Positions 7,296 to 28,874 of a stretch of 64,000 bases of DNA are shown piece after piece. The notes under the pieces were generated by a model. It was given only the letters and a program-made list of their open reading frames with translations, was not told the origin of the DNA and searched no databases. A program made the position numbers and the translations under genes. The first letter of the stretch is position 1. Every line of letters begins with the position of its first letter. This stretch comes from an uncultured Pseudomonadota bacterium (GTDB lineage: Bacteria; Oederibacteriota; Muellerivitia; Muellerivitales; Muellerivitaceae), in assembly GCA_963770835.1 (NCBI GenBank), contig CAVYRH010000004.1, forward strand, positions 166,515 through 230,514, given 5' to 3'.

Positions 7296-7365
7296 TTTCA
7301 GCGAAACCTTGTCCTCCACCCCCTCGTCTAAAGAGGGTGGGACAAACACCACTAAGGAGGAGAGA

Positions 7366-7932
7366 ATGAACTTTAAAGCTTTGATGTTGGGTTTAGTCTT
7401 GGCGGCCTTGGCTTTTGGCCAAGCTTCGGCCCAGAGCTTCGATTTGGGAGTAGAAGCGGGAGCGAACTTCTCAAATTTCATCGGAAGCGCAGCCCCCAGC
7501 GGGAACTTCAACAGCGACAAGCTGGGATTCGTGGGTGGCGGGTTTTTGTGCCTGAATTTCGGGAGTTCCTTTGGAATCCGTCCCGAGGTTCTTTACGAGC
7601 AAAAGGGCAACCAGATTTCAGGGACTAGCACCACCACTGAACTGGATTACATCGAAATACCGGTGCTTTTGAAGCTTTCCCTGGGAACGCCGGTTTTCAA
7701 CCCGTCGATTCTTTTGGGCCCTTCCTTTTCGTGGAATTTGCTGGCCCAAGGCGGCGGGGTTAATATCAACGGCGTCAACAGCTCCGATACGGGGTTGGTC
7801 GGCGGAGTGGAATTTGATTTCAGCAAGTTCCTCATATCCGGCCGGTACGAATTGGGATTGGATAATGTGAAGAGCGATTCCAACGTCCAAAACGGAACCC
7901 TTACATTCCTGATCGGTTATAATTTCATGTAA
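7366..7932 (+). CDS. Outer-membrane beta-barrel protein (OmpW/OmpA-like porin family)
   Basis: Signal peptide (ALAFGQASA), alternating beta-strand pattern, and a C-terminal aromatic residue (NF). Confidence 0.65.
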   Translation: MNFKALMLGLVLAALAFGQASAQSFDLGVEAGANFSNFIGSAAPSGNFNSDKLGFVGGGFLCLNFGSSFGIRPEVLYEQKGNQISGTSTTTELDYIEIPVLLKLSLGTPVFNPSILLGPSFSWNLLAQGGGVNINGVNSSDTGLVGGVEFDFSKFLISGRYELGLDNVKSDSNVQNGTLTFLIGYNFM

Positions 7933-7962
7933 CTGGTGGTTTAGATGAGCAGGACCATGACA

Positions 7963-7996
7963 AAAGGCCCGGGAGGTTCCCGGGCCTTTTGTATTT
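7963..7996 (+). terminator. Rho-independent terminator after the OMP gene
   Basis: 12-bp perfect stem AAAGGCCCGGGA/TCCCGGGCCTTT, 3-nt loop, then TTTTGTATTT. Confidence 0.8.
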
Positions 7997-8039
7997 GTGG
8001 CTATTGCTGGTATTCCAGCTTTCAAGGGCTCCCAGGGCT

Positions 8040-8055
8040 TGTGAAATCTTTCACA
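8040..8055. promoter_or_regulatory. CRP/FNR-family binding-site candidate TGTGAAATCTTTCACA (7-2-7 perfect palindrome)
   Basis: Exact TGTGA-N6-TCACA consensus, about 205 bp upstream of the nuoA start. Confidence 0.55.
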
Positions 8056-8122
8056 CCCTCATTTGTCAAACGCTCCGTTAAGGGCAAAAAACGGCAAATT
8101 TAGGAACTCGAAAAGCCTAGTT

Positions 8123-8138
8123 TGTGAAATGTTTCACA
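8123..8138. promoter_or_regulatory. Second CRP/FNR-family site TGTGAAATGTTTCACA
   Basis: Same perfect palindrome 83 bp (about 8 helical turns) downstream of the first. About 122 bp upstream of nuoA. Confidence 0.55.
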
Positions 8139-8252
8139 TTGATTCTTCCATCTAAAAGTCCTTATAATCCAGCCAATTCCACCCTTTCTCCTCCTGCAAT
8201 CCTCTCCAAAATCCTGAAAAGGTGGCATTAAACCTCCCACCGGGGCCAGCAC

Positions 8253-8630
8253 ATGAATTTTGAAATGATTCAAAATCTTTTGCCTTTAGCCCTGGCCTTC
8301 GTACTGGCTCTCGCGGTACCGGCGGCCATGTTTATCCTGTCGGCTTTCCTGGGACCCCGCCGCGACAACGAGGCGAAACTTTCCTCGTATGAGTGCGGCA
8401 TCCAGGCCGAGGCGGTTTCGGGCGACGCCCGCCACCATTTCAACGTGAAGTTCTACCTGATCGCCATGTGCTTCCTGGTCTTCGACGTGGAGGTTGTTTT
8501 CCTTTTACCATGGGCCGTATTGTTCCAGAAGATGGCCTGGGGAGGGTTCTTTTCCATGCTGGCCTTCCTGGGTGTCCTGGCTTTCGGCTGGTTTTACCTC
8601 TTGAAAAGGGGGGCACTGGAATGGGAATGA
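8253..8630 (+). CDS. nuoA: NADH-quinone oxidoreductase subunit A
   Basis: 125 aa with 3 TM helices and a NuoA-like sequence ([17 protein letters not shown]). Confidence 0.9.
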
Positions 8631-9130
8631 CAGGCGAAGGTTTTCCGGCCATCACCACCCGCAGGGACGCGGTCGTCGCCTGGGGACAGAAAAATTCCCT
8701 GTGGCCCATGCCCTTCGGCACGGCCTGCTGCGCCATCGAGTTCATGGGCGTGGCCGCCTCCGTTTTTGACATCTCCCGCTTCGGCGCCGAACTGGTCCGC
8801 TTTTCCCCGCGCCAAGCCGACCTTCTTTTGGTGGCGGGCACCGTCACCTTCAAGCAGGCTCCCATCCTGAAACAAATTTATGAGCAGATGTGTGAGCCCA
8901 AGTGGGTCATCTCCATGGGCGTCTGCGCTTCCGCCGGCGGGTTCTACAATAACTACTGCACGGTGCAGGGCATCGACCAGGTGATCCCCGTGGATGTTTA
9001 TATCTCCGGCTGCCCCCCCCGTCCCGAGGCCATCCTGCAAGGGGTCCTGAAACTCCAGCATAAGATCGCGAACCCCAAGGCGGTTCCTCCGGCGCAGTTC
9101 AAGGTGAAAGAGCCTCATTTCGACTACTAA
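8621..9130 (+). CDS. nuoB: NADH-quinone oxidoreductase subunit B
   Basis: [10 protein letters not shown] and CPPRPE N2-cluster cysteine motifs. Start overlaps the nuoA stop by 10 nt. Confidence 0.9.
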
Positions 9131-9177
9131 AGCCAGCTCACAGTCGACGGTTCACAGTTCACAGGTAAGGCGAAAAG

Positions 9178-9717
9178 ATGAACAACGAAAACCTATTAGC
9201 GAAATTAACCCAAAAGCATCCCGAAGCCTTGTTGGGTTCGGTGGACCGTTTTGGCGCGCTTGAAATTCAAGTCGCGGGCGAATCCATCGCCGAAGTTGTC
9301 GTGACCCTGCGGGACGATCCGGACTTCTCCTTTAACATGCTCGTCGACCTGGTTTCCATCGATTATTCCGCCTACCAAGGTTGGACGGGCGAGAGGTTCG
9401 GCCTGGCCTACCTCTTCAAGTCCCTGACCCTGGGCCACCGCCTGCAGTTGAAAGTGTCTGTGCCCGAGGATGAACCGATCGCACCGACGATTTCCACGCT
9501 TTACGCCAATGCCAATTGGCTGGAAAGGGAGGCTTACGACCAAATGGGAATCCGCTTCGCCCACCATCCCAACCTGAAACGGATCCTGAACCACCACGAG
9601 TTCGTGGGGCATCCCTTGCGGAAGGATTATCCCATCACCAAACGCCAATGGCTTTCGGCCAACGAGTCCCTGATGGATGAGATGGAAGTACGGTTGAAGG
9701 CGAAGGGCTACGAATGA
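9178..9717 (+). CDS. nuoC: NADH-quinone oxidoreductase subunit C
   Basis: 179 aa of the NuoC/30-kDa subunit family (ANWLEREAYDQMGIRF). Confidence 0.88.
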   Translation: MNNENLLAKLTQKHPEALLGSVDRFGALEIQVAGESIAEVVVTLRDDPDFSFNMLVDLVSIDYSAYQGWTGERFGLAYLFKSLTLGHRLQLKVSVPEDEPIAPTISTLYANANWLEREAYDQMGIRFAHHPNLKRILNHHEFVGHPLRKDYPITKRQWLSANESLMDEMEVRLKAKGYE

Positions 9718-10968
9718 ACAACATTGATCCCCAAACCCTGCTTCCCAAAACCAACGACGAAAACTCCGCGTCCGGCTTAGATTCGGCAAGACACAAAGAC
9801 AGGAAAGACCTGGTTTTCGTCAACCTGGGCCCCAGCCACCCCGCCACCCACGGCTGCCTGCGGGCCCTTTGCGCCCTGGACGGGGAAACCATCGTGGCCG
9901 CCGTGACCGAAATGGGTTACCTGCACCGGGGTTTCGAGAAAGACTGCGAAGTCCACACCTTCCAACAAGTCATTCCCTACACCGACCGGCTCAATTATGT
10001 TTCTGCCATCATGAATAACGTGGGTTACTGCAAGGCCGTGGAACGGATGCTGGGCATCCAAATCCCCGACCGGGCGGCCTATATCCGCGTCATTACTTGC
10101 GAGTTCAACCGCATCATCGACCACTTGGTCTGCGTGGGCGCCAACCTGGTGGACATCGGGGCCCTGACCAATTTCTGGTACTCCTTCAACGCCCGCGAGA
10201 AGGTCTACGACATCCTGGAAAAGCTCTGCGGGGCCCGGCTGACCTCCAGCTACACCCGTATTGGGGGTCTTTCCCGGGACGTTTATCCCGCTTTCGGCGA
10301 CGAAGTGAGGGCGGTGCTGAAGGATATTAAAAAGAGCGTCTCCGAAATCACCAAACTAATTTCCAAAAACCGCATTTTCCTGGACCGTACCCAGGGCGTC
10401 TGCGTCGTCTCCAAGGAAAAGGCCATTTCCTACGGCTGGACCGGGCCGACGCTCAGGGCCTGTGGGGTGGAATACGACCTGCGCAAGGCGGACCCCTATT
10501 ACCACTACGAGGATTTCAAGTTCGAAGTGCCGGTGGGCACCAAGGGCGATATCTACGACCGCATCTTCGTGCGGCTCTACGAGATCGAGGAATCCATCGA
10601 GCATCATCGAACAAGCCCTGAGGAAACTCCCCAAGGGACCCATCCTGACCGACGACAAGCGGGTGGCCCTTCCTCCCAAACAGCAGACCTACGGCAATAT
10701 CGAGGGGCTGATGAACCACTTCAAGATCATCATGCACGGCATCTGCCCGGAACCGGGCGAGGTTTATGACTTCACCGAGGCTGCCAACGGCGAACTGGGG
10801 TTTTATATCGTTGCCGACGGGGGCAAGAATCCCTACCGCATCAAGTGCCGCCCACCCTGCTTCATGAACTTCGCGGCCTTCCACGAGATGATCGAGGGCG
10901 GCATGATCGCGGACGCCATCGCGAATTTGGGATCGATCAACATCATTGCCGGAGAGCTGGACCGGTAA
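9714..10968 (+). CDS. nuoD: NADH-quinone oxidoreductase subunit D. Apparent +1 frameshift at about 10599-10602.
   Basis: The N-terminal 296 aa are in frame 0 up to ..YEIEESI. The conserved C-terminal part (IIEQALRKLPKGPI...GELDR) continues in frame +1. One extra base lies in the quartet gagc at 10599-10602. Confidence 0.85.
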
Positions 10969-10993
10969 ACGGAATAAAAAACCCGAGGGTGTA

Positions 10994-11473
10994 ATGGCCG
11001 TTCAGTTTAAAAAAGAAACGAAGAACGAGTTCGAGACGATTGCCGCCCGATACCCGGTGCGGCGCGCGGCGCTGTTGCCCGCCCTGTGGCTAGCCCAGCG
11101 GGAATTCGGCTTCATCTCCGTGGACGCCATGAAGGCGGTAGCCGAGATGGTGGGTTGTTCCCCGGCCCAAGTGCTGGAGACCGCCAGCTTTTACACCATG
11201 TACCACAAGGAAAAGCCGGGCAAGTACCACCTGCAAGTCTGCCAGACCATCTCTTGCCTCTTAAACGGGTCGGAAGAGATCAAGAAGACCATTGAAGCGA
11301 AGCTCAACCTGAAGCCGGGACAAGTAACACCCGACGGGCAGTTCAGCTACCAGCCTGTGGAATGCCTGGCGGCGTGCCATAACGGGCCCTGCATGCGGGT
11401 GAATGATGACTACCACGAAAACCTGACGCCCGAAGGCGTTGGGAAACTGATTGATGAACTGAAGAGAAAATGA
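10994..11473 (+). CDS. nuoE: NADH-quinone oxidoreductase subunit E (24 kDa, 2Fe-2S)
   Basis: Thioredoxin-like fold with Cys motifs CQTISC...CLAAC. ATG at 10994 after a GAGGG ribosome-binding site. Confidence 0.88.
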   Translation: MAVQFKKETKNEFETIAARYPVRRAALLPALWLAQREFGFISVDAMKAVAEMVGCSPAQVLETASFYTMYHKEKPGKYHLQVCQTISCLLNGSEEIKKTIEAKLNLKPGQVTPDGQFSYQPVECLAACHNGPCMRVNDDYHENLTPEGVGKLIDELKRK

Positions 11474-11937
11474 ACATTATGAAAGGCCTTCTTGGAAGAA
11501 AGGGACTTGTTTTTGCGGCGATCCTTTTTGCTGTGCATTGCACGCCAGCTCGGGCGGAGGAATTATCAAGTGGGAACGAGGTCGTTAATTACGGGGTTGG
11601 AGTGACGTTCACCGGAAAGATCGCAACCCGGTTGGAATATGGAGCACCGGGTTTTGGGGAGGACCCAAAGACAGACGCAAAGGAAAACATCTTCTTGTTG
11701 GTGTTGGATAAACCCATTGATGTTCATGTGGATCAGAGCCGTCCGGGCGATGTTACCGATACGAATGATTTCGATGGAGTGAAAGAAATGCAGGTGGTTT
11801 TTACCGGCAAAAGAATGTTTTCGAAAAAAATAATAGGGAAGAAGGTCAAAGTGACCGGAACATTATTCCAAGCTCATACCGGCCATCATCATACGGACGT
11901 TTTAATCGAAGTAGATACTGTAGAAAGATTGAAGTGA
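11470..11937 (+). CDS. Low-GC secreted His-cluster protein inserted between nuoE and nuoF (hypothetical)
   Basis: ATGA overlap with the nuoE stop. Signal peptide with an AXA cleavage site (ARA|EE). HTGHHH motif. GC about 45% versus about 60% in the flanking nuo genes. Confidence 0.6.
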   Translation: MNIMKGLLGRKGLVFAAILFAVHCTPARAEELSSGNEVVNYGVGVTFTGKIATRLEYGAPGFGEDPKTDAKENIFLLVLDKPIDVHVDQSRPGDVTDTNDFDGVKEMQVVFTGKRMFSKKIIGKKVKVTGTLFQAHTGHHHTDVLIEVDTVERLK

Positions 11938-11952
11938 ACCCGGAGCGAATCA

Positions 11953-13233
11953 TTGCCTGACTTTCAACCTCAATTAACCAAACGTTTCGGACTCAAGGAC
12001 AGCCATATGCTCAAGGTATTCCTTGAGACGGGTGGCTATGCGTCCTTGAAGAACCTTTTCGCCAAGAAGCCAGCCGAAGTCATCGAGGAAGTGAAGGCCT
12101 CCGGCCTCAAGGGCCGCGGTGGGGCCGGGTTCCCGTGTGGTATGAAATGGTCCTTTGTGCCCCAGAACACGGGCAAACCAATCTACCTGGCGGTCAATGC
12201 CGACGAGGGCGAACCGGGGACCTTCACCGACAATTACATGCTCTTAAACGACCCTCATCTTTTATTAGAAGGCATCCTATGCGCTTGTTATGCCATCAAC
12301 AGCCATACGGCTTATATTTATGTCCGGGGTGAGTTTTATGCGCATATCCAGCGGCTGAACGCTGCCATTGATGAAGCCCGGAAAGCTGGATATTTAGGGA
12401 AAAACATCCAGGGTTCGGGTTTCGATCTGGAAGTTTACGTGCACCGGGGTGCGGGGGCCTATATCTGCGGCGAGGAAACCGGGCTTTTAGAATCGCTTGA
12501 GGGAAAACCCGGAAAACCGCGCATTAAGCCGCCTTTTCCGGCGGTGGTCGGACTCTTCGGTTGCCCCACCATCGTCAACAACGTGAAAACCCTGGCTTCC
12601 GTCCCTTGGATCATCGCCAACGGTGCGCCGGCCTATGCCGTCATCGGTACCAAGGAATCCACCGGCACCCACGTCTTCGGACTCTCGGGCCACGTGAACC
12701 AGACCGGCTATTGGGAAATGCCCTTCGGCCTTCCCATGATGGAATTCATCAACAACTACGGCAAGGGAGTGAAGGGCGGGGCGCTCAAGGCTGTCATTCC
12801 CGGCGGTTCTTCCTGCCCTGTACTAACTGCCAAGGAATGCGAAGACTTGACCCTTACATATGAAAGTATGCGGGACCACAAAACCATGTTCGGAACAGGT
12901 TGCGCCATCGTGATGAACGAGCACACCGATATGGTGAAGGTTTTGAAAAATCTGACCCATTTTTATTCCCACGAGTCCTGCGGCCAGTGCACGCCCTGCC
13001 GGGAAGGGACAGCCTGGGAAGACCGGCTGATGAAGAAGTTTTTGAACGGGGAAGCCACGACCCAGGAATTGGGAATGATGCTGGAGATCGCCGACAACAT
13101 GGAGGGCAAGACCATCTGCGTTCTTTCGGCGGCCCTGGCCATGCCGGTCCGAAGTTTCATCCAGAAATTCCGGCCGGATTTTGAGAAATATTGCAAGCCG
13201 ACCTCAGTGGCCGTGCCGGAGGCGGTTTCCTAA
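11953..13233 (+). CDS. nuoF: NADH-quinone oxidoreductase subunit F (FMN/NADH-binding, 4Fe-4S)
   Basis: GLKGRGGAGFPCGMKW FMN site and ESCGQCTPCREG cluster motif. TTG start. Confidence 0.92.
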   Translation: MPDFQPQLTKRFGLKDSHMLKVFLETGGYASLKNLFAKKPAEVIEEVKASGLKGRGGAGFPCGMKWSFVPQNTGKPIYLAVNADEGEPGTFTDNYMLLNDPHLLLEGILCACYAINSHTAYIYVRGEFYAHIQRLNAAIDEARKAGYLGKNIQGSGFDLEVYVHRGAGAYICGEETGLLESLEGKPGKPRIKPPFPAVVGLFGCPTIVNNVKTLASVPWIIANGAPAYAVIGTKESTGTHVFGLSGHVNQTGYWEMPFGLPMMEFINNYGKGVKGGALKAVIPGGSSCPVLTAKECEDLTLTYESMRDHKTMFGTGCAIVMNEHTDMVKVLKNLTHFYSHESCGQCTPCREGTAWEDRLMKKFLNGEATTQELGMMLEIADNMEGKTICVLSAALAMPVRSFIQKFRPDFEKYCKPTSVAVPEAVS

Positions 13234-14858
13234 TGGCGAAAATCACCATCGACGGAAAACCCATGGAAGTGCCCGACGGCACCAACGTGCTGGAGGCGGC
13301 AGTTTCCAACGGCGTGCCACTGGAGCACTTTTGCTACCACCGCTATCTGCCCGTTGCCGGCAACTGCCGCACTTGCATGGTGGAGATCGAGGGGCCCAAG
13401 GGGCGCATGCTTACTATCGGCTGCAACACCAAGGTGGCCGAGGGCATGGTGATCCACACCGACACCCCCAAGGCCAAACAAGCCCAAAAGAGCGCTCTGG
13501 AGATGCTCCTCCTGGACCACCCACTGGACTGCCCCGTCTGCGACAAGGCGGGGGAATGCAAACTGCAGAACCAATATATGGAATACGGACTTTACGATTT
13601 CCGCCGGGGGGTGCCCCGCTACTTCAAGGGCGGAAAGGACGAGGATATCGGCGAGCACGTCATCCTGGACCAGGAACGCTGCGTGCTATGCACCCGGTGC
13701 ATCCGCTTCGTCGACGAGATCCCCAAGACGTCCGAGCTGGGAATCATGAACCGCGGCCATGAATCCGTCCTCAGCATTTTCCCGGGAGTACGGTTGGATA
13801 ACCCCTATTCCGGAAACGTCACGGACGTCTGCCCGGTTGGTGCGCTCACCTTGAAGGAATTCCGCTTCAAGCAAAGGGTGTGGTTCCTCAAGAAAGCCGA
13901 ATCCGTCTGCCCGGGCTGCGCTAGGGGCTGCAACATCACGGTGGAACATAACCATGGGCGGATTTACCGCTTCATGCCCCGTGAAAACGCAGAACTGAAC
14001 AAGACCTGGATCTGCGACGAAGGGCGTTTTTCCTTTAATCACTGGCAGGACAACCGGGTGGAAGAAGTGCGGTTGGGGCACGGAAGTTCAAACCTGGATG
14101 ACGGCATCGCCCAATTGGCCAACCTCTTGGAAGGCCTCTCACCGGAGGAAGTCGCGGGCATCGCCTCCCCCGCCGCCGCCCTGGAAGACCTTTATGTTAT
14201 GAAGAAACTGTTCGAGAAGCGTTTCCGGCTGAAGAACCTCGCCGCGCCCTTTTGGGGCAAGAAAGGCGACGAGGATAAAATCCTCAAGCTCGCGGACAAG
14301 ATCCCCAACACCCAGGGTCTAAATCTTTTGGGCATCGACACCGAGGGAAAGGACCTTTTAGCCCGCATTGAAAAAGGAAACTTTAAGGCCGTCCTCATCA
14401 TGCACAACAACCCCTTCGGACAGGACGAGGAAAAGGCCCAAAAGGTCTATGGAAACGTGAAAGTATTGGTTGTGCTTTCGGTCCATAAAACCAAAATGGC
14501 CGAGCGGGGCTCTATGGTTTTCCCCGTGAGGCCTTTCACCGAGAAGAATGGAACCTTCGTGAACGCCACCAGCCGTCTCCAGCGGTTCCGGCAGGCTATT
14601 GAACCCGGAAACCCCGACGTGGTGGAGGCTTCGTTATGGATGTGCCGATTGGCCAAGGCCCTGAAGGTGGAAGGCCTAGATTTTGAGGACACTCCCTCGA
14701 TCTTCAACGCCATGGCCAAGGAAGTGGAGGCTCTCAAAGGGCTGACGTTTAATTCCATTCCCGCCACCGGCAAGGTTTTGGATTTGAAACCCCTGGCCCC
14801 GGAACCTTTCCAGGGCGTGAAGGCCCAGCCCAACGTGTGTGGAAAGGCCAAGGCATGA
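13233..14858 (+). CDS. nuoG: NADH-quinone oxidoreductase subunit G (short form, 541 aa)
   Basis: N-terminal 2Fe-2S ferredoxin fold (CYHRYLPVAGNCRTC), then CPVCDKAGEC and CVLCTRCIRF cluster motifs. 1-nt overlap with nuoF (taATG). Confidence 0.88.
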   Translation: MAKITIDGKPMEVPDGTNVLEAAVSNGVPLEHFCYHRYLPVAGNCRTCMVEIEGPKGRMLTIGCNTKVAEGMVIHTDTPKAKQAQKSALEMLLLDHPLDCPVCDKAGECKLQNQYMEYGLYDFRRGVPRYFKGGKDEDIGEHVILDQERCVLCTRCIRFVDEIPKTSELGIMNRGHESVLSIFPGVRLDNPYSGNVTDVCPVGALTLKEFRFKQRVWFLKKAESVCPGCARGCNITVEHNHGRIYRFMPRENAELNKTWICDEGRFSFNHWQDNRVEEVRLGHGSSNLDDGIAQLANLLEGLSPEEVAGIASPAAALEDLYVMKKLFEKRFRLKNLAAPFWGKKGDEDKILKLADKIPNTQGLNLLGIDTEGKDLLARIEKGNFKAVLIMHNNPFGQDEEKAQKVYGNVKVLVVLSVHKTKMAERGSMVFPVRPFTEKNGTFVNATSRLQRFRQAIEPGNPDVVEASLWMCRLAKALKVEGLDFEDTPSIFNAMAKEVEALKGLTFNSIPATGKVLDLKPLAPEPFQGVKAQPNVCGKAKA

Positions 14859-16168
14859 TGGACTCGAACCAAGTTTTCACCCTTATCAACATCGCGGTGA
14901 TGACGGTGGTGATGTGGCTTATTCCCCTCCAATTCATCCCGGTTTTCATCTGGCTGGAGCGCAAGGGAAGCGCTATCATCCAGGACCGCATCGGTCCCAA
15001 CCGCACGGGAATCCTGGGGTTCCGACTTTTCGGCATGGTCCAGAATTTCGCGGACGTCGTGAAACTTTTGATGAAAGAAAACATCGTACCCACCAAGGCC
15101 AACCGCTTTTATTTCATGCTGGCGCCCTTTTGGGCCATGACCATCAGCCTCCTGCCCCTTTTGGTGGTTCCCCTCGCCGCCCCCCTCAACTTGATGGGAC
15201 ATACCATCCGTTTCCAGGCCGCCGACCTTGGCGTGGGGCTTCTCTTCATCCTTTCCATCACCAGCATGGGAGTCTTCGCCATCATCCTGGCCGGGTGGTC
15301 CTCCAACAACAAATTTTCCCTTATGGGGGGGCTGCGTTCCTCGGGCCAAATGATTTCCTACGAGCTTTCCATGGGCCTGGCAATGGTGGGGCTCTTGATG
15401 GTCTACCAGGATGTCCGGATGAGCTCCATCGTGGAAGCTCAAGGAAGGCTTTTGACCGCATGGGGCCACACTCTGCCGCTGCCCAATTGGGGTATATTCC
15501 TCCAGCCTGTCGGGTTTCTCCTTTTTTTGGTGGCTTCTTTCGCTGAAACCAACCGAAATCCCTTCGATTTGGCGGAAGGGGAGTCGGAACTGGTGGCGGG
15601 CTTCCACGTGGAATACTCCAGCGTCAAGTTCTCACTCTTCTTCATGGCCGAGTATTCCAACATGGTGGTGGCGGCCTTCGTGATCTCGACCCTATTCCTG
15701 GGTGGCTACCAGGTGCCCTTCGCCTCCACTGATACCCTGTTGCAAAACCCGAAACTAACCCTGGCCCTTTTATGCGGATTAGTGATCCTACTCATGGGGC
15801 TTACCGGCCTATTCCTCTATAAGAGGGGGAACCAGCAAAAACACCTTTTCGCCAACGGGGTGAAAAGGGCTGAGCCCTTTCTTTTCGCGGGGCTTTGCTT
15901 TGCGGTTGCGACGGCGGCCCTGGCATTCCTGGCTGTGGGTTTGACAACGGAACTTGCCCCATGGATCTACGGGATCGCCACCACCCTGTTGCAATTGTTT
16001 TGCCTGGTCCTGAAGGTGCTGTTTTTCTGCTGGCTCTTCGTATGGGTACGCTGGACCCTGCCGCGGTTCCGTTACGACCAGCTGATGAAGATGGGATGGA
16101 AGCTCATGCTGCCGCTGGCCTTGTTGAACTTGCTGGTGACCGGCGTGATTATTTTGACACAAAAGTGA
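14855..16168 (+). CDS. nuoH: NADH-quinone oxidoreductase subunit H (with an insertion of about 90 aa)
   Basis: NuoH signature regions (IQDRIGPNR, AETNRNPFDLAEGESELVAGFHVEYS). ATGA overlap with nuoG. Confidence 0.88.
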   Translation: MMDSNQVFTLINIAVMTVVMWLIPLQFIPVFIWLERKGSAIIQDRIGPNRTGILGFRLFGMVQNFADVVKLLMKENIVPTKANRFYFMLAPFWAMTISLLPLLVVPLAAPLNLMGHTIRFQAADLGVGLLFILSITSMGVFAIILAGWSSNNKFSLMGGLRSSGQMISYELSMGLAMVGLLMVYQDVRMSSIVEAQGRLLTAWGHTLPLPNWGIFLQPVGFLLFLVASFAETNRNPFDLAEGESELVAGFHVEYSSVKFSLFFMAEYSNMVVAAFVISTLFLGGYQVPFASTDTLLQNPKLTLALLCGLVILLMGLTGLFLYKRGNQQKHLFANGVKRAEPFLFAGLCFAVATAALAFLAVGLTTELAPWIYGIATTLLQLFCLVLKVLFFCWLFVWVRWTLPRFRYDQLMKMGWKLMLPLALLNLLVTGVIILTQK

Positions 16169-16204
16169 TGAATAGCCGAGGGAACAGAGGAGTTTGAGGT
16201 TTTT

Positions 16205-16750
16205 ATGAGAATTGTGCAACGGCCCGAAATGAAGGGCTCTGAAAAAATATACGTGGTGGAAGTGGTCAAGGGCCTTTGGCTGACGATCGGCCACGTCGTT
16301 ACCAACCTATTCCATCCGGAAAACTTGCCCACGGTCTTCTTCCCCGAGGAAAAGAAGGCGCTTCCACCCGCCACCCGCGGGAGACACCGCCTCATGAAAC
16401 GGGAAGATGATTCGCCGCGTTGCACGGCCTGCATGCTGTGCGCCACGGCCTGCCCGGCCGAGTGCATCCACATCCTAGCCGCCGAGTCGCCCGATCCGAA
16501 CATCGAGAAGCTCCCTGAGAAATTTGATATCGATATGCTGCGCTGTGTGTATTGCGGCTTTTGCGTGGACGCCTGTCCCCTGGACGCCATCCGGATGGAC
16601 ATTCCGGAGGTTACTGTCGCCGGTTACACGCGCGACAGCCTGGTGTACCACAAGAAATTCTTGATGGATCACGACAACAAAGACGTAGTGCCGGATTATA
16701 ATCCGCCCCGGCCAGTCCTTTGGACACATGGGCCCCATGCAAAGCCTTAA
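16205..16750 (+). CDS. nuoI: NADH-quinone oxidoreductase subunit I (2x[4Fe-4S])
   Basis: CTACMLCATACP and CVYCGFCVDACP motifs. Confidence 0.9.
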   Translation: MRIVQRPEMKGSEKIYVVEVVKGLWLTIGHVVTNLFHPENLPTVFFPEEKKALPPATRGRHRLMKREDDSPRCTACMLCATACPAECIHILAAESPDPNIEKLPEKFDIDMLRCVYCGFCVDACPLDAIRMDIPEVTVAGYTRDSLVYHKKFLMDHDNKDVVPDYNPPRPVLWTHGPHAKP

Positions 16751-16848
16751 GAAGCAGTCAACAGTTGGCGGTCGGCAGCCGGAAATAAGTAAAAGACGCT
16801 GGTTTTTAGTTGTCGACCGTCGACTGTCAGCTTGGAGAAAGGGAAGTC

Positions 16849-17352
16849 ATGATTGAAGCGGTTTTGTTCTATATTCTGGCCGCGGTTCTCTTGGGCATGG
16901 GTTTGCTGGTGATCACCAGGACTAATCCCATCGCCTCGGCCTTGGGGCTGGTGGCTGCCTTCGCGGCTTTGGCGGCCCTTTACGCCCTTTTGTCCGCTTC
17001 GCTGGTGGCCATCATCCAAATCCTGGTTTACGCGGGCGGCATCATGGTGCTCATGATCTTCGTGATCATGCTTTTGAACCTTCATCCGGACGACCTCAAG
17101 CCCATGCGGGCCAAGGGAATCGTCGTGGCATTGGCCCTGGTTATGGTTTTGGGGTTGGTCTTAGGCCCGGTTTTCCTGGTGGTTTTCCCCGCCGGGACTT
17201 GGACCCTAGCGCCCGTGGCGGCGGGCTTTGGGGACATTTTCTCAGTCGGTGAAAAAATATTCTCGGATTATTTGTTTCCCTTTGAGATGCTCTCGCTGGT
17301 GCTTTTGACGGCCATCGTGGGAGCTTTGGTCCTCACGAAAAGGAAACTTTAA
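16849..17352 (+). CDS. nuoJ: NADH-quinone oxidoreductase subunit J
   Basis: 168-aa membrane subunit. ATG 16849 after GGAGAAAGGGA. Confidence 0.85.
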   Translation: MIEAVLFYILAAVLLGMGLLVITRTNPIASALGLVAAFAALAALYALLSASLVAIIQILVYAGGIMVLMIFVIMLLNLHPDDLKPMRAKGIVVALALVMVLGLVLGPVFLVVFPAGTWTLAPVAAGFGDIFSVGEKIFSDYLFPFEMLSLVLLTAIVGALVLTKRKL

Positions 17353-17670
17353 ATGGAGCTTTTATATCCCATCACGCCCACGCATTACCTGGTCCTGTCG
17401 GGCTTGTTATTCGGCATTGGAACGGCGGGGGTGCTGTCGCGCAGGAACCTGTTCGTCGTCTTGATGTCCCTGGAATTGATGCTGAACGGGGTGAACCTTT
17501 CCTTCATCACCTTTTCCAGGGTGAACGGCGATTTGACGGGCCATGTGATCGTCTTGTTCGTGGTGGCCATTGCGGCGGCGGAAGCCTGCGTGGGATTGGC
17601 CATCGTGATCGCCCTTTACCGCCTGAAGGAAACGGTGGATTTGGATTTATTTAAGAGCTTGAAAGGCTGA
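17353..17670 (+). CDS. nuoK: NADH-quinone oxidoreductase subunit K
   Basis: 105 aa with 3 TM helices and the conserved glutamates (LELMLNGVNL). Confidence 0.88.
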   Translation: MELLYPITPTHYLVLSGLLFGIGTAGVLSRRNLFVVLMSLELMLNGVNLSFITFSRVNGDLTGHVIVLFVVAIAAAEACVGLAIVIALYRLKETVDLDLFKSLKG

Positions 17671-17671
17671 A

Positions 17672-19651
17672 ATGGGAATCGAAGCGTTCCAATATAAGTC
17701 CCTGATCCAGTTCGACTGGATTTGGCTCATCCTTGCCGCTCCCCTCCTGGGGGCGGTTGTGAACGGTGCTTTGACCCTTTTCGCAGCGGGCCGCAAAACC
17801 AACATCGCCCATGGGTTTTACGCCACGGTTGGCTGTGGGGGGGCCTTCCTTTCTTTTATCGCCTCCTGGCTAACCTTCCTTCATTTTAAGGAGCTACCCG
17901 CCGGCAGCGTTTTGACCCAGGAATTGTTCGATTGGATCGAGGCGGGGGCCTTCCACACGAAGATGAGTTTCGAACTGGACGCCCTCTCCATAAGTATGGT
18001 GGTGTTCATTACCTTCGTTTCAAGCCTTATCCATCTTTATTCTGTGGGGTACATGAAGGACGATCCAGGTTTCGGCCGGTATTTCACTTACCTGAATATT
18101 TTCCTCTTTTCCATGCTGGTCTTGGTGATGGCCCAAAATCTTCTCGTGCTCTTTTTGGGATGGGAAGGCGTGGGGTTTTGTTCCTATCTTTTGATCGGTT
18201 TTTGGTTCGACGATGCCGCGAAGGCCAACGCGGGCAAGAAAGCCATCATCGTCAACCGCATCGGGGACGCGGGCTTCCTGGCCGGCCTACTGATCCTCTT
18301 CGCGCTGGCGGGGACCTTCAATTTCAACGAACTGCAAATGGGGAAGCACGCTTTCACTGAGCTTTCCGCCACGGTGATCTGCCTTTGTTTCTTCTTCGGC
18401 GCGGCGGGCAAGTCGGCCCAGATCCCCCTTTACGTCTGGCTGCCGGACGCCATGGCGGGCCCCACGCCGGTATCGGCCCTCATCCACGCCGCCACCATGG
18501 TGACGGCGGGTATTTACCTGGTGGCGCGCCTCAATTTCCTCTTCGTCCTGGCGCCCTGGGCCTCCATGGTGGTGGCGGTTATCGGCGTTTTAACTGCCCT
18601 CTTCGCGGCCACCCTAGCCCTGGCCCAAAACGACATCAAAAAGGTTTTGGCTTACTCCACCATTTCCCAACTGGGGTTCATGTTCTTGGGGGCGGGGGTC
18701 AGCGCCTACGGCGCCGGACTCTTTCATCTCATCACCCACGGGTTTTTCAAGGCTTGCCTCTTCCTGGCGGCAGGCTCGGTCATTCACGTTTTGAAGGGAG
18801 AGCAGGACATCCGCAAGATGGGCGGGCTGCTGAAACATATCCCGTTGACGAGCATCTCCTTCTTCCTTGGTTGGGCCGCCATTACGGGCGTCCTGCCTTT
18901 TTGCGGGGGATTTTTCAGCAAGGACGAAATCCTCTGGCGGGCCCTGGCAACCCCCAACCCGGTCATTCCCTTTTTGCCGGAAGCGCTTTATTTCACCGCC
19001 CTTTTCACCGCCTTCCTGACGGCTTTTTACATGACCCGCCTTTTCGTGACGGTTTTCTTCGGGGAATACCGGGGGGACCGCGAAATCTTCGAACACCTGC
19101 ACGATTCACCGAAGGTCATGACGGTGCCGATGCTGCTTTTGGGAGTGGGTTCCATCGTCGTCGGCTGGATCGGAGTGCCCGAGGCCATCGGCGGGGGAAA
19201 TTCCCTGGGTAAGTTCGTGGAACCGATTTTCCATCTTTCCACCCTGGAGGCCAACAACATCTCCCCGAAATTGGAGCCGCTTTTGATGCTGCTTTCCTTC
19301 TTAGTGGCGGGCTTGGGGGTCCTGGCCGCCTGGTATGTCTATGGGTGGAAGCACAACATCAGCCCGGTTCTTTTAAAGTTGATTCCTGGCGGTAAGAAGG
19401 CCGTCGAGAAAAAATATTATGTGGATGAGATTTACGAAGTGTTGGTGGTGCGTGCGGTTAAGGGGTTTGCCCATTGGGTCTCCGACAGGCTGGTGGAACA
19501 AATCCTCATCAACCGGGTACTGGATGTAATCACCCAAGGGGTTTACGCGGTCGCGAAGTTATTGAGGAAAACCCAAGTGGGCCTGGTGCGGGTTTACTTG
19601 GCCTACGTCGTGGCGGGCGCCGCACTGTTGATTTATCTCTTACTTCATTAA
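17672..19651 (+). CDS. nuoL: NADH-quinone oxidoreductase subunit L
   Basis: 659-aa antiporter-like subunit (WLPDAMAGPTPVSALIHAATMVTAG). Confidence 0.9.
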   Translation: MGIEAFQYKSLIQFDWIWLILAAPLLGAVVNGALTLFAAGRKTNIAHGFYATVGCGGAFLSFIASWLTFLHFKELPAGSVLTQELFDWIEAGAFHTKMSFELDALSISMVVFITFVSSLIHLYSVGYMKDDPGFGRYFTYLNIFLFSMLVLVMAQNLLVLFLGWEGVGFCSYLLIGFWFDDAAKANAGKKAIIVNRIGDAGFLAGLLILFALAGTFNFNELQMGKHAFTELSATVICLCFFFGAAGKSAQIPLYVWLPDAMAGPTPVSALIHAATMVTAGIYLVARLNFLFVLAPWASMVVAVIGVLTALFAATLALAQNDIKKVLAYSTISQLGFMFLGAGVSAYGAGLFHLITHGFFKACLFLAAGSVIHVLKGEQDIRKMGGLLKHIPLTSISFFLGWAAITGVLPFCGGFFSKDEILWRALATPNPVIPFLPEALYFTALFTAFLTAFYMTRLFVTVFFGEYRGDREIFEHLHDSPKVMTVPMLLLGVGSIVVGWIGVPEAIGGGNSLGKFVEPIFHLSTLEANNISPKLEPLLMLLSFLVAGLGVLAAWYVYGWKHNISPVLLKLIPGGKKAVEKKYYVDEIYEVLVVRAVKGFAHWVSDRLVEQILINRVLDVITQGVYAVAKLLRKTQVGLVRVYLAYVVAGAALLIYLLLH

Positions 19652-19670
19652 GGCAGCTCTTAGAAGTTTT

Positions 19671-19695
19671 AGCTGTTAGCCAAAAACTAACAGCT
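19671..19695 (+). other. Perfect 9-bp stem hairpin (AGCTGTTAG-N7-CTAACAGCT) in the nuoL-nuoM intergenic spacer
   Basis: Read directly. No trailing T-tract, so this is not a canonical terminator. Confidence 0.6.
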
Positions 19696-19729
19696 AAAAG
19701 CCAAAAGCTGATTTAAAAAGAGGTTTATT

Positions 19730-21313
19730 TTGATCCTATCCATTCTCATAGGTCTTCCCGTGCTGGGAGCGGTGTTGGCGGCGCTTTTTCCCCAAGAAAA
19801 GGCCACCAAGACCATTTCCCTCCTGGCTTCCCTCACCACCTTCGTATTTTCCCTCCTGCTTTACGTTCGCTTCGACGCGGCGGATGGGGGGTTTCAGTTC
19901 CAGGAACTCATCCCGCTGGTCCCCCGGCTTTCCATCAATTACAGCCTGGGCCTGGACGGTTTATCCCTTTGGCTCATTCTCCTCGCCACTTTCCTCACGC
20001 CACTTGTGGTTCTGGGAAGCTTTGGAATGATTAGGAAAAATGTCAGGGGATATTACGCCTGCCTGCTTTTGCTGGAGGCTTCCGTCATCGGAACCCTGGA
20101 GGCCACGGACCTGTTCCTTTTTTATATTTTCTGGGAGCTCATGTTGATTCCAGCTTTCTTCCTGATCGGCGTCTGGGGCGGGCCCAACCGCGTGAAGGGA
20201 ACGGTGAAATTCATCCTTTTCACCATGGCGGGGTCGCTTCTGATGCTGGTGGCGCTCATTTATGTGACCCACGAAGTGAAAAGCTTTGATTACGCCAAGG
20301 TCTTCGAGCACGCCTTCCCGGAAGACGTTCAATTCTGGTGCTTCCTGGCCTTTGCGATGGCTTTTCTCATTAAAATCCCCCTCTTTCCTTTCCACGGCTG
20401 GCTCCCGGACGCCTACACGGAGGCGCCTGCGGGCGGTACAGTGATGCTTTCCGCAGTGCTGGTCAAGCTGGGGGCCTACGGCCTCTTGCGTTTCTGTATC
20501 CCGCTTTTTCCCGACGCAGCCAAGGCCTTCGCCCCCTGGATCATGGTGCTGGCCGCGGCCGGAGTGGTGCATGGGGCCTTCATGGCCATCCTTCAAACCG
20601 ATTTCAAACGGTTGATGGCTTATTCCTCCCTCTCCCATATGGGGTTGATCACGCTGGGGATTTTCACTTTTTCGCTCACGGGTCTCGAGGGCGGCATGAT
20701 CCAGATGGTCGGCCACGGGGTTTACATGGGGGGGCTTTTCCTTTTAATTGGGATGCTTTATCAACGCCGGGAATCGCACGAGATGGATGCCTACGGCGGG
20801 GTCGCGAAGGGGGCGCCGCTCCTGGCGGCGGCATTCCTTTGGATGATTCTTTCATCAGCCGGCCTGCCCGGCTTTGCGGGTTTCGTGGGTGAAATCCTGA
20901 TTTTGACTTCCGCCTACAAGGTTTGGGCCCTGCCGGCCCTCGTCGCCATCACGGGTTTTGTCCTCTCGGCTTGGTACCTCTTCAATTTGTACGGGAAAGT
21001 GTTTTTTGGACCGGATAAAGCCCACCGCCAAGACGCCAAGGCGCCAAGTAAGACAGATCCTGAAAACAAAGAACAAACCCAGAAGTTTAAGGATCTGTCA
21101 CTGTCAGAAGGTTTGGCGCTATTGCCGCTGGTTTTGGCCGCCCTTTGGATCGGTCTGAACGCCAATTTTTTCCTGGCACCCATAGAAAAGACCCTTCAAA
21201 TGAAAGTTATTGAAAAGTTGAAACCACCGCCACCCATGATGGATTTCGCCGCCGAGCAGCGACGCCTCCAAGAAGAAATGGACAACGGCAACAAGAAGCA
21301 TCCGAAGCGTTAA
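19730..21313 (+). CDS. nuoM: NADH-quinone oxidoreductase subunit M
   Basis: Antiporter-like subunit (FPFHGWLPDAYTEAP). TTG start after an AAAGAGG ribosome-binding site. Confidence 0.9.
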   Translation: MILSILIGLPVLGAVLAALFPQEKATKTISLLASLTTFVFSLLLYVRFDAADGGFQFQELIPLVPRLSINYSLGLDGLSLWLILLATFLTPLVVLGSFGMIRKNVRGYYACLLLLEASVIGTLEATDLFLFYIFWELMLIPAFFLIGVWGGPNRVKGTVKFILFTMAGSLLMLVALIYVTHEVKSFDYAKVFEHAFPEDVQFWCFLAFAMAFLIKIPLFPFHGWLPDAYTEAPAGGTVMLSAVLVKLGAYGLLRFCIPLFPDAAKAFAPWIMVLAAAGVVHGAFMAILQTDFKRLMAYSSLSHMGLITLGIFTFSLTGLEGGMIQMVGHGVYMGGLFLLIGMLYQRRESHEMDAYGGVAKGAPLLAAAFLWMILSSAGLPGFAGFVGEILILTSAYKVWALPALVAITGFVLSAWYLFNLYGKVFFGPDKAHRQDAKAPSKTDPENKEQTQKFKDLSLSEGLALLPLVLAALWIGLNANFFLAPIEKTLQMKVIEKLKPPPPMMDFAAEQRRLQEEMDNGNKKHPKR

Positions 21314-21337
21314 ACACGGAGCCGGTAAAGTTATTCC

Positions 21338-22795
21338 GTGACTCAAGATTTTCCGAGGTTTAAGTTGGGCCCATTACCGAACGAATTAACCCCGCTCCTG
21401 CCCCTGTGGATCGTCGTGGCGGGGGCGCTTGCGATCCTTCTGCTGGAAGCCCTCTTGCACGAGGAAGGGCGCAAGGCGGCGCCCGTTTTGGCCGGAACCG
21501 CCCTGGTGCTTTCACTGGGGAGTGTCTTTCACCTGCTTTCCTTGCGGGGAATGCCCGGGCCTCTTTTTCACGGCGCGGTGGTCGTGGATTTGTATTCCCT
21601 AACCCTCCAGGGAATTTGCCTGTTGTCGGCCCTTTTGACCTGCGTTTTTTCCGCTTCTTATTTGAAGCGGGAAAAGGCCGTGACCGGCGAATATTACGCC
21701 CTTCTTCTTTTGGCCGTGGCGGGCATGTTCACCTTGGTCCTCGCCGCCGATTTCCTGACCTTTTTCGTGGGTCTGGAACTCATGTCCCTGGCCGCTTACG
21801 TTTTGGCGGGATACCTGCGGGTCCAGGAACGCTCGACCGAGGCGGCCTTGAAATATTTCATGCTAGGAGTTTTCGCCTCCGGATTTCTTCTTTACGGTGT
21901 CGCCCTAATTTACGGGGCCTCTGGGACCATTCATTTTTCGGACTTGAGGCATTTCTTGGAACAAGGGCATACTTCCTCCCTTTTCGTGGATTTAGGTGTG
22001 GGGTTTCTTTTGGTGGGTTTGGGATTCAAGGTCGCCTTGGTCCCTTTTCACGGTTGGGCGCCGGATGTTTACGACGGGGCCCCAGCCCCCGTATCGGCTT
22101 TTCTTTCGACGGGTGTTAAAACCGCAGCCTTCGGCGCGTTTGCCCGCCTTTTCGCGGAGGCATTCGGCTTGCCGGGAACCTGGGTTCCGGTTTTCGCGGT
22201 CCTGGCCATTCTCACCATGACCCTGGGCAACCTGGGGGCCCTGGCCCAGGAAAGCGTCAAGCGTATGCTCGCCTATTCCAGCGTCGCCCATGCCGGGTAC
22301 CTTATGGTGGGGCTTGCCACCGTATCCCTCGCCCCGGCGGATGACCTGGAACGGGCGGTGGCTTTTTACCTTTTGGCTTACACCCTCATGACCGCGGGGG
22401 CTTTTGGCTGGATCGCCTGGGCATCCGGAAAGGGCGAGGCGGGAACGGGGCTCGAAGATTACCGGGGTTTGGGCCTGAAATGCCCTTGGATGGGGTTGAT
22501 GATGGCGCTTTTCATGTTTTCCCTGGCCGGCATGACACCCACCGCCGGCTTCTTCGGAAAATACTACCTTTTCAAATTGGCGGTGGACCACGGTTTGATC
22601 GGATTGGCCCTCATCGCGGTTTTGAACAGCTTTCTCTCGGCTTATTACTACCTGCGAGTGGTCGTGTTCCTCTACATGAAACCCTCAAAGGAAGGGGTTG
22701 GCTCCGTCCCATTCGTCCCCTGGGATCTTCGCCTCGCCTTTTTTCTTTGCGGTTTGGGTGTGCTGGCCGCGGGGTTTTTCAAATTTCCTTTTTAA
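21338..22795 (+). CDS. nuoN: NADH-quinone oxidoreductase subunit N
   Basis: Antiporter-like subunit (VPFHGWAPDVYDGAPAPVSAF). GTG start. Confidence 0.88.
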   Translation: MTQDFPRFKLGPLPNELTPLLPLWIVVAGALAILLLEALLHEEGRKAAPVLAGTALVLSLGSVFHLLSLRGMPGPLFHGAVVVDLYSLTLQGICLLSALLTCVFSASYLKREKAVTGEYYALLLLAVAGMFTLVLAADFLTFFVGLELMSLAAYVLAGYLRVQERSTEAALKYFMLGVFASGFLLYGVALIYGASGTIHFSDLRHFLEQGHTSSLFVDLGVGFLLVGLGFKVALVPFHGWAPDVYDGAPAPVSAFLSTGVKTAAFGAFARLFAEAFGLPGTWVPVFAVLAILTMTLGNLGALAQESVKRMLAYSSVAHAGYLMVGLATVSLAPADDLERAVAFYLLAYTLMTAGAFGWIAWASGKGEAGTGLEDYRGLGLKCPWMGLMMALFMFSLAGMTPTAGFFGKYYLFKLAVDHGLIGLALIAVLNSFLSAYYYLRVVVFLYMKPSKEGVGSVPFVPWDLRLAFFLCGLGVLAAGFFKFPF

Positions 22796-27049: not shown

Positions 27050-28874
27050 ATGGAAAATGAAATTATCGTCGGTATCGGTGGGGCAGCCGGAGACGGTGGC
27101 GCATCCACCGGGGACAACCTGGCTTTGGCCAGCGCCCGGCAAGGTCTTTTCGTGTACGTCTATACGAGCTATCAATCCCTGATCCGCGGCGGCCACTCCT
27201 GGATACGCCTCCGGATTTCCAGCAAGAATGTCACCAACGTCGGCGACCAAGTGGGCGCCATGATCGCCTTGAACCAGGATTCGATGGACCGCCACCTGCA
27301 GGAATTGACAACCGGCGGCATCTGCGTTTACAACGGCGATAAGGTCAAGCCCGGCAAGGCCCCCGAGGGCGTGCAGCTGTGTCCCTTGCCCGTGTTTGAG
27401 CTGGCGGGCAAGGATGCCCTTCCGATCATGCAGAACACTGTGGCCTTGGGCGCCCTCACCGGTCTCCTGGGATTGGAATTTTCGTCCCTTTCCTCAGTCT
27501 TCGAACACACCTTTAAGAAAAAACCCCAGGTCGTCAAGGCCAACATCGATGCCGCCAAGGCTGGCTACGATTTCGCGGTGAAGACCTACAAGAAAATCGC
27601 CAATCCCCTCGGCAAAACCCCGGCCAAGCTTGCTATGGTGCACGGCAACAACATGTTCGGCCTCGGCGCGGCCAACGCCGGCTGCAAGGTTTATTGCGCC
27701 TATCCGATGAGCCCGGCCACCGGCATCCTTCATTGGATGGCGGGACACGGCAAGGACTTGGGGATCTGCGTTCGCCAAGTGGAGGATGAAATCGGCGTCG
27801 CCAACATGACCATCGGCGCGGGCCAAATGGGCGTGCGCGCCATGTGCGCCACATCGGGCGGCGGATTCGCCCTCATGACCGAAGCCATCGGCATGGCCTC
27901 CATCATGGAAATTCCGGTCGTCATGATCAACGTCATGCGCGGCGGACCTTCCACGGGGCTTCCCACCAAGCAGGAACAAGGTGACCTGAACCAGGCCATC
28001 GGGGCCTCCCAGGGTGATTTCCAGCGCGTGATCATCGCCCCCACCTCCATCGCGGACTGCTACTCCACTATGGAAGAAGCCTTCAACTTACGCCGAGAAA
28101 TTCCAGATGCCGGTCCTCATCCTTTCCGACCTCCTGATGAGCGAGGGCCACATGACGCTGGAAACCTCCTTCCTGGACCGTGAGTTCAAGATCGACCGCG
28201 GCGAGATGATCTTCGAGGACGACGGCAAGCCGAAGAGCTACCTTCGTTATAAGGACACCCCTTCGGGCGTTTCGCCCCGGGCCATCCCCGGACTGTCAAA
28301 CCACCTTTACGTCTCCGCTACCGACGAGCACGACGAGGACGGGGTCACCATCTCCGACGTCTATACCGATCCCGTCACCCGCAAGAAGGTCGTGGACAAG
28401 CGCGAGCGCAAAATGCAGGGAGTCCTGGCCGCTTTGCCTAAGCCTAAATTGGAAGGATCGGCCGACGCCGACACCGTCATCGTGACTTACGGCTCCACCT
28501 ACGGGGCCGCCAGCGAGGCCGTCGAGCGCATGAACAAAGAGGGCGTGAAGTGCAGCCACCTTTCGGTCAAGTACCTGGTTCCTTTCCAGGAAAAGGAAGT
28601 TACCGCACTTTTGAAGGGTAAGAAAAACATCATCGTGGTAGAAATGAACAAATCGGGCCAATTCGCCCGCCATTTGCGCGCCGAAACGGGTATCACGTCC
28701 ACCGGCAACGTCCGCAAGTACGACGGCGAGCCGTTCGAACCCAAGCATGTCGTCGCGGGCATCAAGGAAGTCTTGAAGGGCAAGGCGGTCGTCGAGTCCG
28801 AGTCGTTGGAACCGGGCTGGCGCACGCCGCATCCTCCGGGACCGGGAGTCATGGCTACTTCGTCGACGCATTAA
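27050..28874 (+). CDS. korA: 2-oxoglutarate/2-oxoacid:ferredoxin oxidoreductase alpha subunit. Apparent +1 frameshift at about 28088-28091.
   Basis: The N-terminal part in frame (GGAAGDGGASTGDNLA...) ends at ..MEEAFNL. The conserved continuation AEKFQMPVLILSDLLMSEGH... is in the next frame. One extra base lies in aacttacgcc. Confidence 0.85.

Follow-up and report, generated by a model that had tools for sequence, protein, structure and literature searches.

Paired palindromes at the complex I promoter of the candidate phylum FCPU426 as predicted operators of a redox-responsive repressor, most likely Rex

The window, that is the whole 64-kb stretch of DNA analysed here, encodes all 14 subunits of complex I in a complete nuoA-N operon (Table 1). 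The operon begins at 8253 with nuoA (Oxidored_q4 in Pfam) and includes the NADH-oxidising subunits NuoE, NuoF and NuoG, also recognised by Pfam, so its product consumes NADH. Upstream of the nuo promoter lie a 6-phosphogluconate dehydrogenase gene and an outer-membrane beta-barrel gene (7309-7932, Pfam OMP_b-brl_2). A predicted terminator-like hairpin that ends the beta-barrel gene would separate the nuo promoter from upstream transcription.

The window has several other notable features. A 155-amino-acid open reading frame (11470-11937) is located between nuoE and nuoF, it has a DUF4431 domain at its C-terminus and a signal-peptide-like N-terminus. Near position 10600 the nuoD gene carries a one-base insertion relative to two relatives (L010 and L008), which splits it into two frames; the resulting reading frames (9714-10769 and 10462-10968) match positions 1-164 and 149-271 of Pfam Complex1_49kDa respectively. 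This frameshift is either an assembly indel or genuine. The alpha subunit of a 2-oxoacid:ferredoxin oxidoreductase (27050-28874) is apparently split as well: in the first reading frame POR_N is cut off at position 141 of the 231 in its profile, and PFOR_II is found in the overlapping second one. The two cases together suggest that the source assembly carries indel errors. On the minus strand, two very large proteins of 1520 and 943 amino acids (41982-46544 and 47119-49950) carry the DUF11, FlgD_ig and Por_Secre_tail domains, the last of these associated with type IX secretion sorting. The GC skew over this gene region is +0.25 to +0.35, and an island of 43% GC follows at 50-52 kb.

The intergenic region in front of nuoA contains a sole sigma-70-like promoter, TTGATT and TATAAT separated by 18 nt (10 of 12 positions matching). 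This promoter is predicted and strongly conserved, the arrangement TTG-N20/21-TATAAT being present in all 18 FCPU426 loci examined. The position of the -10 hexamer places the transcription start at about 8175. A second promoter at the more distal of the two sites described below was considered and rejected, as no conserved -10-like element lies 3' of that site.

Two palindromes precede this promoter. The pattern TGTGANNNNNNTCACA matches the window at two places only, a distal one at 8040-8055 (TGTGAAATCTTTCACA) and a proximal one at 8123-8138 (TGTGAAATGTTTCACA). A sequence-only reading of this DNA had pointed to the same two palindromes, and their positions and sequences are exact as it gave them, each matching TGTGA-N6-TCACA perfectly. 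By chance 0.03 matches to TGTGANNNNNNTCACA would be expected in the window, and none of 100 shuffled windows contained two or more. The start-to-start spacing is 83 bp and the centres lie 205.5 bp (distal) and 122.5 bp (proximal) 5' of the nuoA ATG, in agreement with the 83 bp and the approximate positions of -205 and -122 given earlier. The proximal palindrome ends at 8138 and directly abuts the -35 hexamer; in its extended form (8122..8139) it overlaps that hexamer by one base, the initial T. A 281-bp segment containing the promoter is found exactly in two independent short-read assemblies (L001 and L002), the palindromes are therefore not assembly artefacts.

Table 1. Features of the nuo promoter region and operon, with the loci at which complex I genes appear split
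Feature	Position	Strand	Basis and remarks
Terminator-like hairpin	7970..7991	+	Terminator scan; ends beta-barrel gene 7309-7932
Distal operator (predicted), TTGTGAAATCTTTCACAC	8039..8056	none	Centre about -127.5 from predicted start; core invariant in 15 aligned species
Proximal operator (predicted), TTGTGAAATGTTTCACAT	8122..8139	none	Centre about -44.5 from predicted start
-35 hexamer TTGATT	8139..8144	+	Promoter scan, 10/12 matches; TTG invariant across relatives
-10 hexamer TATAAT	8163..8168	+	Promoter scan; invariant in alignment A1
Predicted 78-nt leader	8175..8252	+	Start placed from -10 position
nuoA-N operon, 14 subunits, complete	8253..22795	+	Pfam
Split complex I loci			L027, L042, L060, L083, L091, L116, L139
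Split complex I loci			L028, L037, L046, L061, L094
Split complex I loci			L057, L078, L084, L144

The predicted leader can form a 5'-terminal stem around a pyrimidine-rich loop, with 8175-8188 paired to 8216-8229; the predicted nuo transcript thus folds its initial ~12 nt onto a stretch that lies 40-55 nt further downstream. The stem shows complementary changes in 13 of 16 relatives (including L004, L005, L007-L012, L014, L015 and L017), and across species its arms read, for example, CCACC/GGUGG, CGCCC/GGGCG, CACCC/GGGUG and CCGCUC/GAGCGG. This covariation supports the predicted start site. The stem may act as an mRNA-stabilising 5' element. The leader and promoter region matched no Rfam family, and the stability of the leader fold was not unusual. 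RNAalifold returned no consensus for the leaders of the relatives, which is attributable to their poor alignment by MAFFT.

The window comes from FCPU426, a candidate phylum that has yet to yield a cultured member and whose physiology and biology are almost undescribed. We scanned species-representative genomes with NuoA and obtained 22 loci, the close relatives among them are FCPU426 metagenome-assembled genomes, for which the sources are peat, bog and soil. Both palindromes are present 5' of nuoA in the window and in 15 other species-level FCPU426 genomes, the NuoA proteins of which are 71-89% identical. Of these 16 genomes, 13 have the palindromes 83 bp apart, and the remaining three have them at 82 bp (two genomes) or 84 bp (one). 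Between the proximal site and the ATG, in contrast, the same species differ widely, with 99.5 to 379.5 bp. The sites had been placed on one helical face from the window alone, and the comparison bears this out with a spacing constrained to about eight helical turns. In an alignment of 15 intergenic regions of nuoA (alignment A1) the mean column identity is 47%, and the invariant columns cluster in the first site, in the second site running into the TTG of the -35 hexamer, and in CCnTATAAT. The proximal operator falls within the invariant block G136-G157 of this alignment.

Across 415 kb of retrieved loci, almost all of them from FCPU426, the motif was found only upstream of nuoA, with up to two mismatches allowed. 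A scan for the motif had been proposed as a way to define a regulon; run on the window and on these loci it gave no scattered matches and no second promoter. That no second target promoter was seen in those 415 kb weighs against the Rex reading. Since the sites are invariant, their surroundings have diverged and the motif is absent elsewhere in the 415 kb, the palindromes are, judged by their conservation, functional cis elements of a conserved promoter and not products of chance or members of a repeat family. The opposing view is that they have no regulatory role and arose by chance or neutrally, as a relic repeat or as part of an RNA or a small open reading frame. The region does share sequence with two short reading frames, a plus-strand one at 7945-8103 and a minus-strand one at 8100-8273. 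Against this stand the chance expectation given above and the invariance of the sites in 16 species amid diverged surroundings, and the lack of an Rfam match speaks against an RNA. The palindromes lie upstream of the predicted start and so would not be transcribed with nuo, and a motif found nowhere else in the fetched loci is not a dispersed repeat. The pattern of conservation effectively refutes this explanation, which we regard as extremely improbable.

Two FCPU426 lineages have lost both operators and kept the core promoter (L013 9890-9940 and L021 9915-9965). Their promoters consist of TTGACC or TTGATT, 18 nt and TATAAT, and L021 retains only a right half-site, TTTCACA, fused to the -35 hexamer. 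These lineages are a natural operator-deletion experiment: since their promoter persists without the sites, the factor bound there does not act as an essential activator. A core promoter so close to consensus favours a repressor, and the retention of the same core promoter after loss of the sites fits the logic of repression. Another relative, L019, has about 335 nt between nuoA and the operator pair with its promoter (9530-9812). The long leader of this locus contains a terminator-like hairpin, AAAAGTCCAACGGATGGACTTTTT (9789-9812), possibly an insertion or an additional element for attenuation.

The sequence-only reading had ascribed these palindromes to a regulator of the CRP/FNR family. Once the flanking bases are included, however, each site is TTGTGAA-N4-TTCACA(C/T). 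Rex is a sensor of NADH and NAD+ that combines a winged helix with a Rossmann fold, and its family is unrelated to CRP/FNR. The Rex operator consensus is TTGTGAA-W4-TTCACAA in Staphylococcus aureus, and the same sequence is the cross-phylum consensus as quoted from Ravcheev et al. 2012. Compared with the Rex operator TTGTGAANNNNTTCACAA, each site has one mismatch, at the last base. The operators of the relatives read TTGTGAAATATTTCACAT, and the distal site of L019 is a perfect TTGTGAAATATTTCACAA. The centres of the two sites in the window, ATCT and ATGT, are each W at three of four positions, and ATAT is the commonest centre of the proximal site in the relatives. The core TGTGA-N6-TCACA cannot by itself separate CRP from Rex, it is the flanking T/A and the AT-rich centre that do so. 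The palindromes fit a Rex operator better than a CRP/FNR site. Two points count against Rex: where the consensus has an outer A, the right half-site carries T, C or G, and the core suits the CRP consensus just as well. A third, weaker palindrome, TTTTGAAATGATTCAAAA, lies at 8258-8275, overlaps codons 2-8 of nuoA and has two mismatches to the Rex consensus. It was rejected as an operator, being found only in near-identical strains, degraded in L008 and not conserved as a palindrome in the relatives; as it is not kept there, it is probably due to chance.

The target also has a precedent. Rex directly represses nuoA-N in Streptomyces. In Streptomyces avermitilis Rex binds the nuoA1 promoter, as found by EMSA and ChIP, and protects -42 to -16 including the -35 region; the operator there is TTGTGACCTGCTTCACAT, in which the last base is a T. 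Deletion of rex raises nuoA1 expression and NADH lowers the binding of Rex to DNA in this species. The complete nuoA-N operon with NuoE, NuoF and NuoG is a target that re-oxidises NADH and fits the class of genes found in Rex regulons. In FCPU426, therefore, motif, AT-rich centre and target class are all those of a Rex operator. The palindromes are probably operators for a dimeric repressor, most likely Rex, that would control the single conserved nuo promoter.

A CRP/FNR-family dimer is the first competing explanation. It would most plausibly repress, as Crp1 does, under the control of cAMP or some other signal of carbon or redox state. Both sites are perfect TGTGA-N6-TCACA sequences, and the T at the outer right base suits CRP-type flanks at least equally well. 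CRP/FNR proteins are known from almost every phylum. Crp1 of Mycobacterium smegmatis recognises TGTGA-N6-TCACA and represses nuo; direct binding of Crp1 at the mycobacterial nuo promoter is not reported in the part of the published account available, which weakens the parallel. The extra conserved positions in FCPU426, the T before TGTGA and the AAAT/TTT within N6, are those of Rex operators. The predicted centres of the sites, -44.5 and -127.5, are off the positions used for class I and class II activation, though this leaves a repressor unaffected. In Escherichia coli activation by CRP/FNR occurs from -41.5 (class II) or from -61.5, -71.5 and similar positions (class I). A LacI-type operator was also considered. 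Operators of that type need a central CG, and the central dinucleotide here is variable (TC, TG, TA or TT), which speaks against one.

We scanned a metagenome collection for TTGTGAAATNTTTCACA, a pattern that is itself Rex-like, and obtained at least 120 loci with 124 sites. None of the 120 loci listed is from FCPU426, all belong to other phyla. At the free base of the pattern the symmetric outer A is present in 73% of the 124 sites listed, giving fully symmetric 18-mers, so most of the listed sites are genuine palindromes of one class. The site lies directly upstream of complex I genes in 21 of the 120 loci listed, in operons that begin with nuoA, nuoB, nuoF or nuoG; about 0.2 such loci were estimated to be expected by chance. 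The exact motif is thus a widespread marker of complex I promoters. A Pfam census of the 142 genes that flank the motif in these loci is led, among the matches listed, by multihaem cytochromes c (9), NuoB (7), NuoF (4), NuoG-type proteins (4) and ATP synthase a (4), followed by NuoA, NDH-2-type flavoproteins and Rex (3 each). The cNMP-binding and Crp families are not among the top 25 flanking families of the matches listed. By tblastn a rex gene adjoins the motif in three of the 120 loci listed and a CRP/FNR gene in none of them, a further point against a CRP/FNR regulator. A tie of the motif to carbon-catabolic genes, transporters or crp was not borne out among the matches listed, which come from other phyla and from a Rex-like pattern. 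At their free flanks the listed sites favour A(-4) G(-3) Y(-2) T(-1), a preference also seen in the left half-sites of FCPU426 (AGGGC-T-TGTGAAA and tAG-T-T-TGTGAAA).

Individual loci of the survey are informative about Rex outside FCPU426. L104 carries rex and the operator on one contig and has, among the matches listed, the tetranucleotide signature closest to FCPU426. It was rejected as a member of the phylum when the contig proved to be from Verrucomicrobiota. With one rex clade belonging to Verrucomicrobiota, Rex and this operator do occur together in Gram-negative phyla of soil. In two other loci (L036 534-550 and L047 1331-1347) the operator TTGTGAAATATTTCACAG directly follows a TTGACA-17-CATACT/TACACT promoter upstream of rex, which on this arrangement is a clear case of predicted rex autoregulation. 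The Rex proteins of this clade are ~30-37% identical to reference Rex and 70% identical to each other, and they have an insertion within the DNA-binding domain. The composition of both loci is unlike that of FCPU426 and they were rejected as members of it. In many uncultured bacteria the complex I genes are apparently split, with nuoB-first, nuoF-first and nuoG-first units each behind TTGTGAAA-NN-TTTCACAA (Table 1). This suggests that one regulator may coordinate the split complex I modules.

The search for the gene of the regulator was made in the window and around nuoA in the relatives. Pfam identified no transcription factor among 56 translations from the window (55 predicted reading frames and nuoA). 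A tblastn search of the 64-kb window with probe sequences of Rex, CRP and FNR likewise revealed no gene of either family. A weak CRP-like match near 33.7 kb was discarded because it is antisense to the gene of the succinate dehydrogenase flavoprotein. In 20 relatives the 10 kb around nuoA (~350 kb in all) also contained no Rex or CRP/FNR gene, and a 6.8-kb Logan contig that shares a window-terminal protein contains no regulator of interest. The best 120 matches of a Rex profile search in a large protein collection are all from Bacillus or Streptomyces. The search for a CRP/FNR gene that the sequence-only reading had recommended was thus empty for the window and the nuoA loci of the relatives, and this counts against a CRP/FNR regulator. 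Of its proposal that such a factor regulates complex I, the genuine cis-regulation of nuo stands, with redox control the most plausible form. The assignment to CRP/FNR is not supported as it was given, in view of extended sites that match the Rex operator with one mismatch and listed metagenome loci that are respiratory and include rex; a CRP/FNR-family regulator, which we consider rather unlikely, is the main rival to Rex.

The same searches leave room for a different, possibly uncharacterised FCPU426 regulator that has converged on GTGAAA/TTTCAC and perhaps bridges the two sites. About 15 reading frames of the window have no Pfam family, no regulator gene was identified in the window or the nuoA loci of the relatives, and the strict spacing of 82-84 bp has not been described for Rex or CRP sites. 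The close fit to a cross-phylum operator consensus in front of a precedented target operon argues the other way, as does the link of the extended motif to rex and to Rex-type targets among the metagenome matches listed. We judge such a regulator to be quite improbable. That Rex is the regulator in FCPU426 is predicted from the operators, with the gene absent from the window and the nuoA loci of the relatives, and it is somewhat better than an even prospect. The best overall reading, to which we assign a probability of roughly 0.6, is NADH-responsive repression of complex I by Rex through the two predicted operators.

On the Rex reading, the repressor would sit on the proximal operator when the ratio of NADH to NAD+ is low. 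This operator fills the space just 5' of the -35 hexamer and touches it, so that a footprint of 23-29 nt, the size of Rex footprints in S. avermitilis, centred at 8130.5 would extend over both the -35 hexamer and the UP-element region and thereby block RNA polymerase. Relative to the predicted start, the proximal site is upstream of the -35 and outside the interval from -35 to +1, which is less typical of simple occlusion. The distal operator, on the same DNA face at a distance of 83 bp (~8 turns), would probably strengthen repression by cooperativity or a short DNA loop. A constant spacing of ~8 turns, maintained while the spacer drifts, argues for such a same-face interaction. We found no precedent in the Rex literature consulted for cooperation between Rex dimers 83 bp apart. 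As NADH builds up the repressor would leave the DNA, more complex I would be made and NADH would be re-oxidised. In this scheme we infer the transcription start, repression as opposed to activation, the identity of the repressor as Rex, its response to NADH and the cooperation of the two sites. A more unusual arrangement, in which the operator pair at 82-84 bp is held by bridged dimers in a loop of ~8 turns (undescribed for Rex) or is read by an undescribed FCPU426 regulator with a convergent motif, is unlikely.

On this reading the promoter carries a known type of redox switch in a new phylum, and it provides the first concrete and testable regulatory prediction for FCPU426. Since Rex is already known to control nuo, the advance is a modest one in conceptual terms. 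If the prediction is true, complex I synthesis is tuned to the ratio of NADH to NAD+, which would suit life in peat and soil with fluctuating oxygen. The case also illustrates that reading raw sequence can reveal real operators.

Among known systems, the paired arrangement recalls looping repressors. The lac operators O1 and O3 are 92 bp apart and the gal operators OE and OI form a similar pair. In lac and gal, as in FCPU426, an operator at the promoter is joined by an identical second operator ~8-9 turns away on the same face. The lac and gal repressors are tetramers or HU-dependent, whereas Rex is described as a dimer.

The Rex regulons of Firmicutes such as S. aureus and Bacillus subtilis have the same operator consensus and targets that regenerate NAD+. 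Promoters with multiple sites occur there, for example at S. aureus ldh1; in the Firmicutes literature we came across no description of distant Rex sites having to be in helical phase. The targets in Firmicutes are mostly fermentation genes, whereas the FCPU426 target is complex I.

Crp1 of M. smegmatis (MSMEG_6189) is a TGTGA-N6-TCACA-binding repressor of the complex I operon, as is proposed here for the FCPU426 factor, and its deletion derepresses nuoA, nuoF and nuoN 7- to 14-fold. Crp1 belongs to a different protein family from Rex and senses cAMP. The extended half-site TTGTGAAAT is conserved in FCPU426 and lies outside the CRP consensus quoted for Crp1.

The nuoA-N operators of Streptomyces coelicolor and S. 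avermitilis share with those of FCPU426 an 18-bp inverted repeat of the TTGTGAA-N4-TTCACAA type, including the terminal T in the case of S. avermitilis. The target operon is the same, the operator touches the -35 region in both (a predicted one in FCPU426), and repression is lifted by NADH in Streptomyces as is proposed here. Streptomyces has one operator, located between -35 and -10, whereas FCPU426 has two at a fixed 83 bp with the proximal one just upstream of -35. The centre of the FCPU426 sites is AT-rich (AAAT-N-TTT), like low-GC Rex sites and unlike those of Streptomyces. Streptomyces Rex is a proven regulator of nuo, whereas the FCPU426 operators are predicted ones from an uncultured phylum. 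In function and sequence together, the closest counterpart of the FCPU426 promoter is the Rex operator of nuoA-N in Streptomyces.
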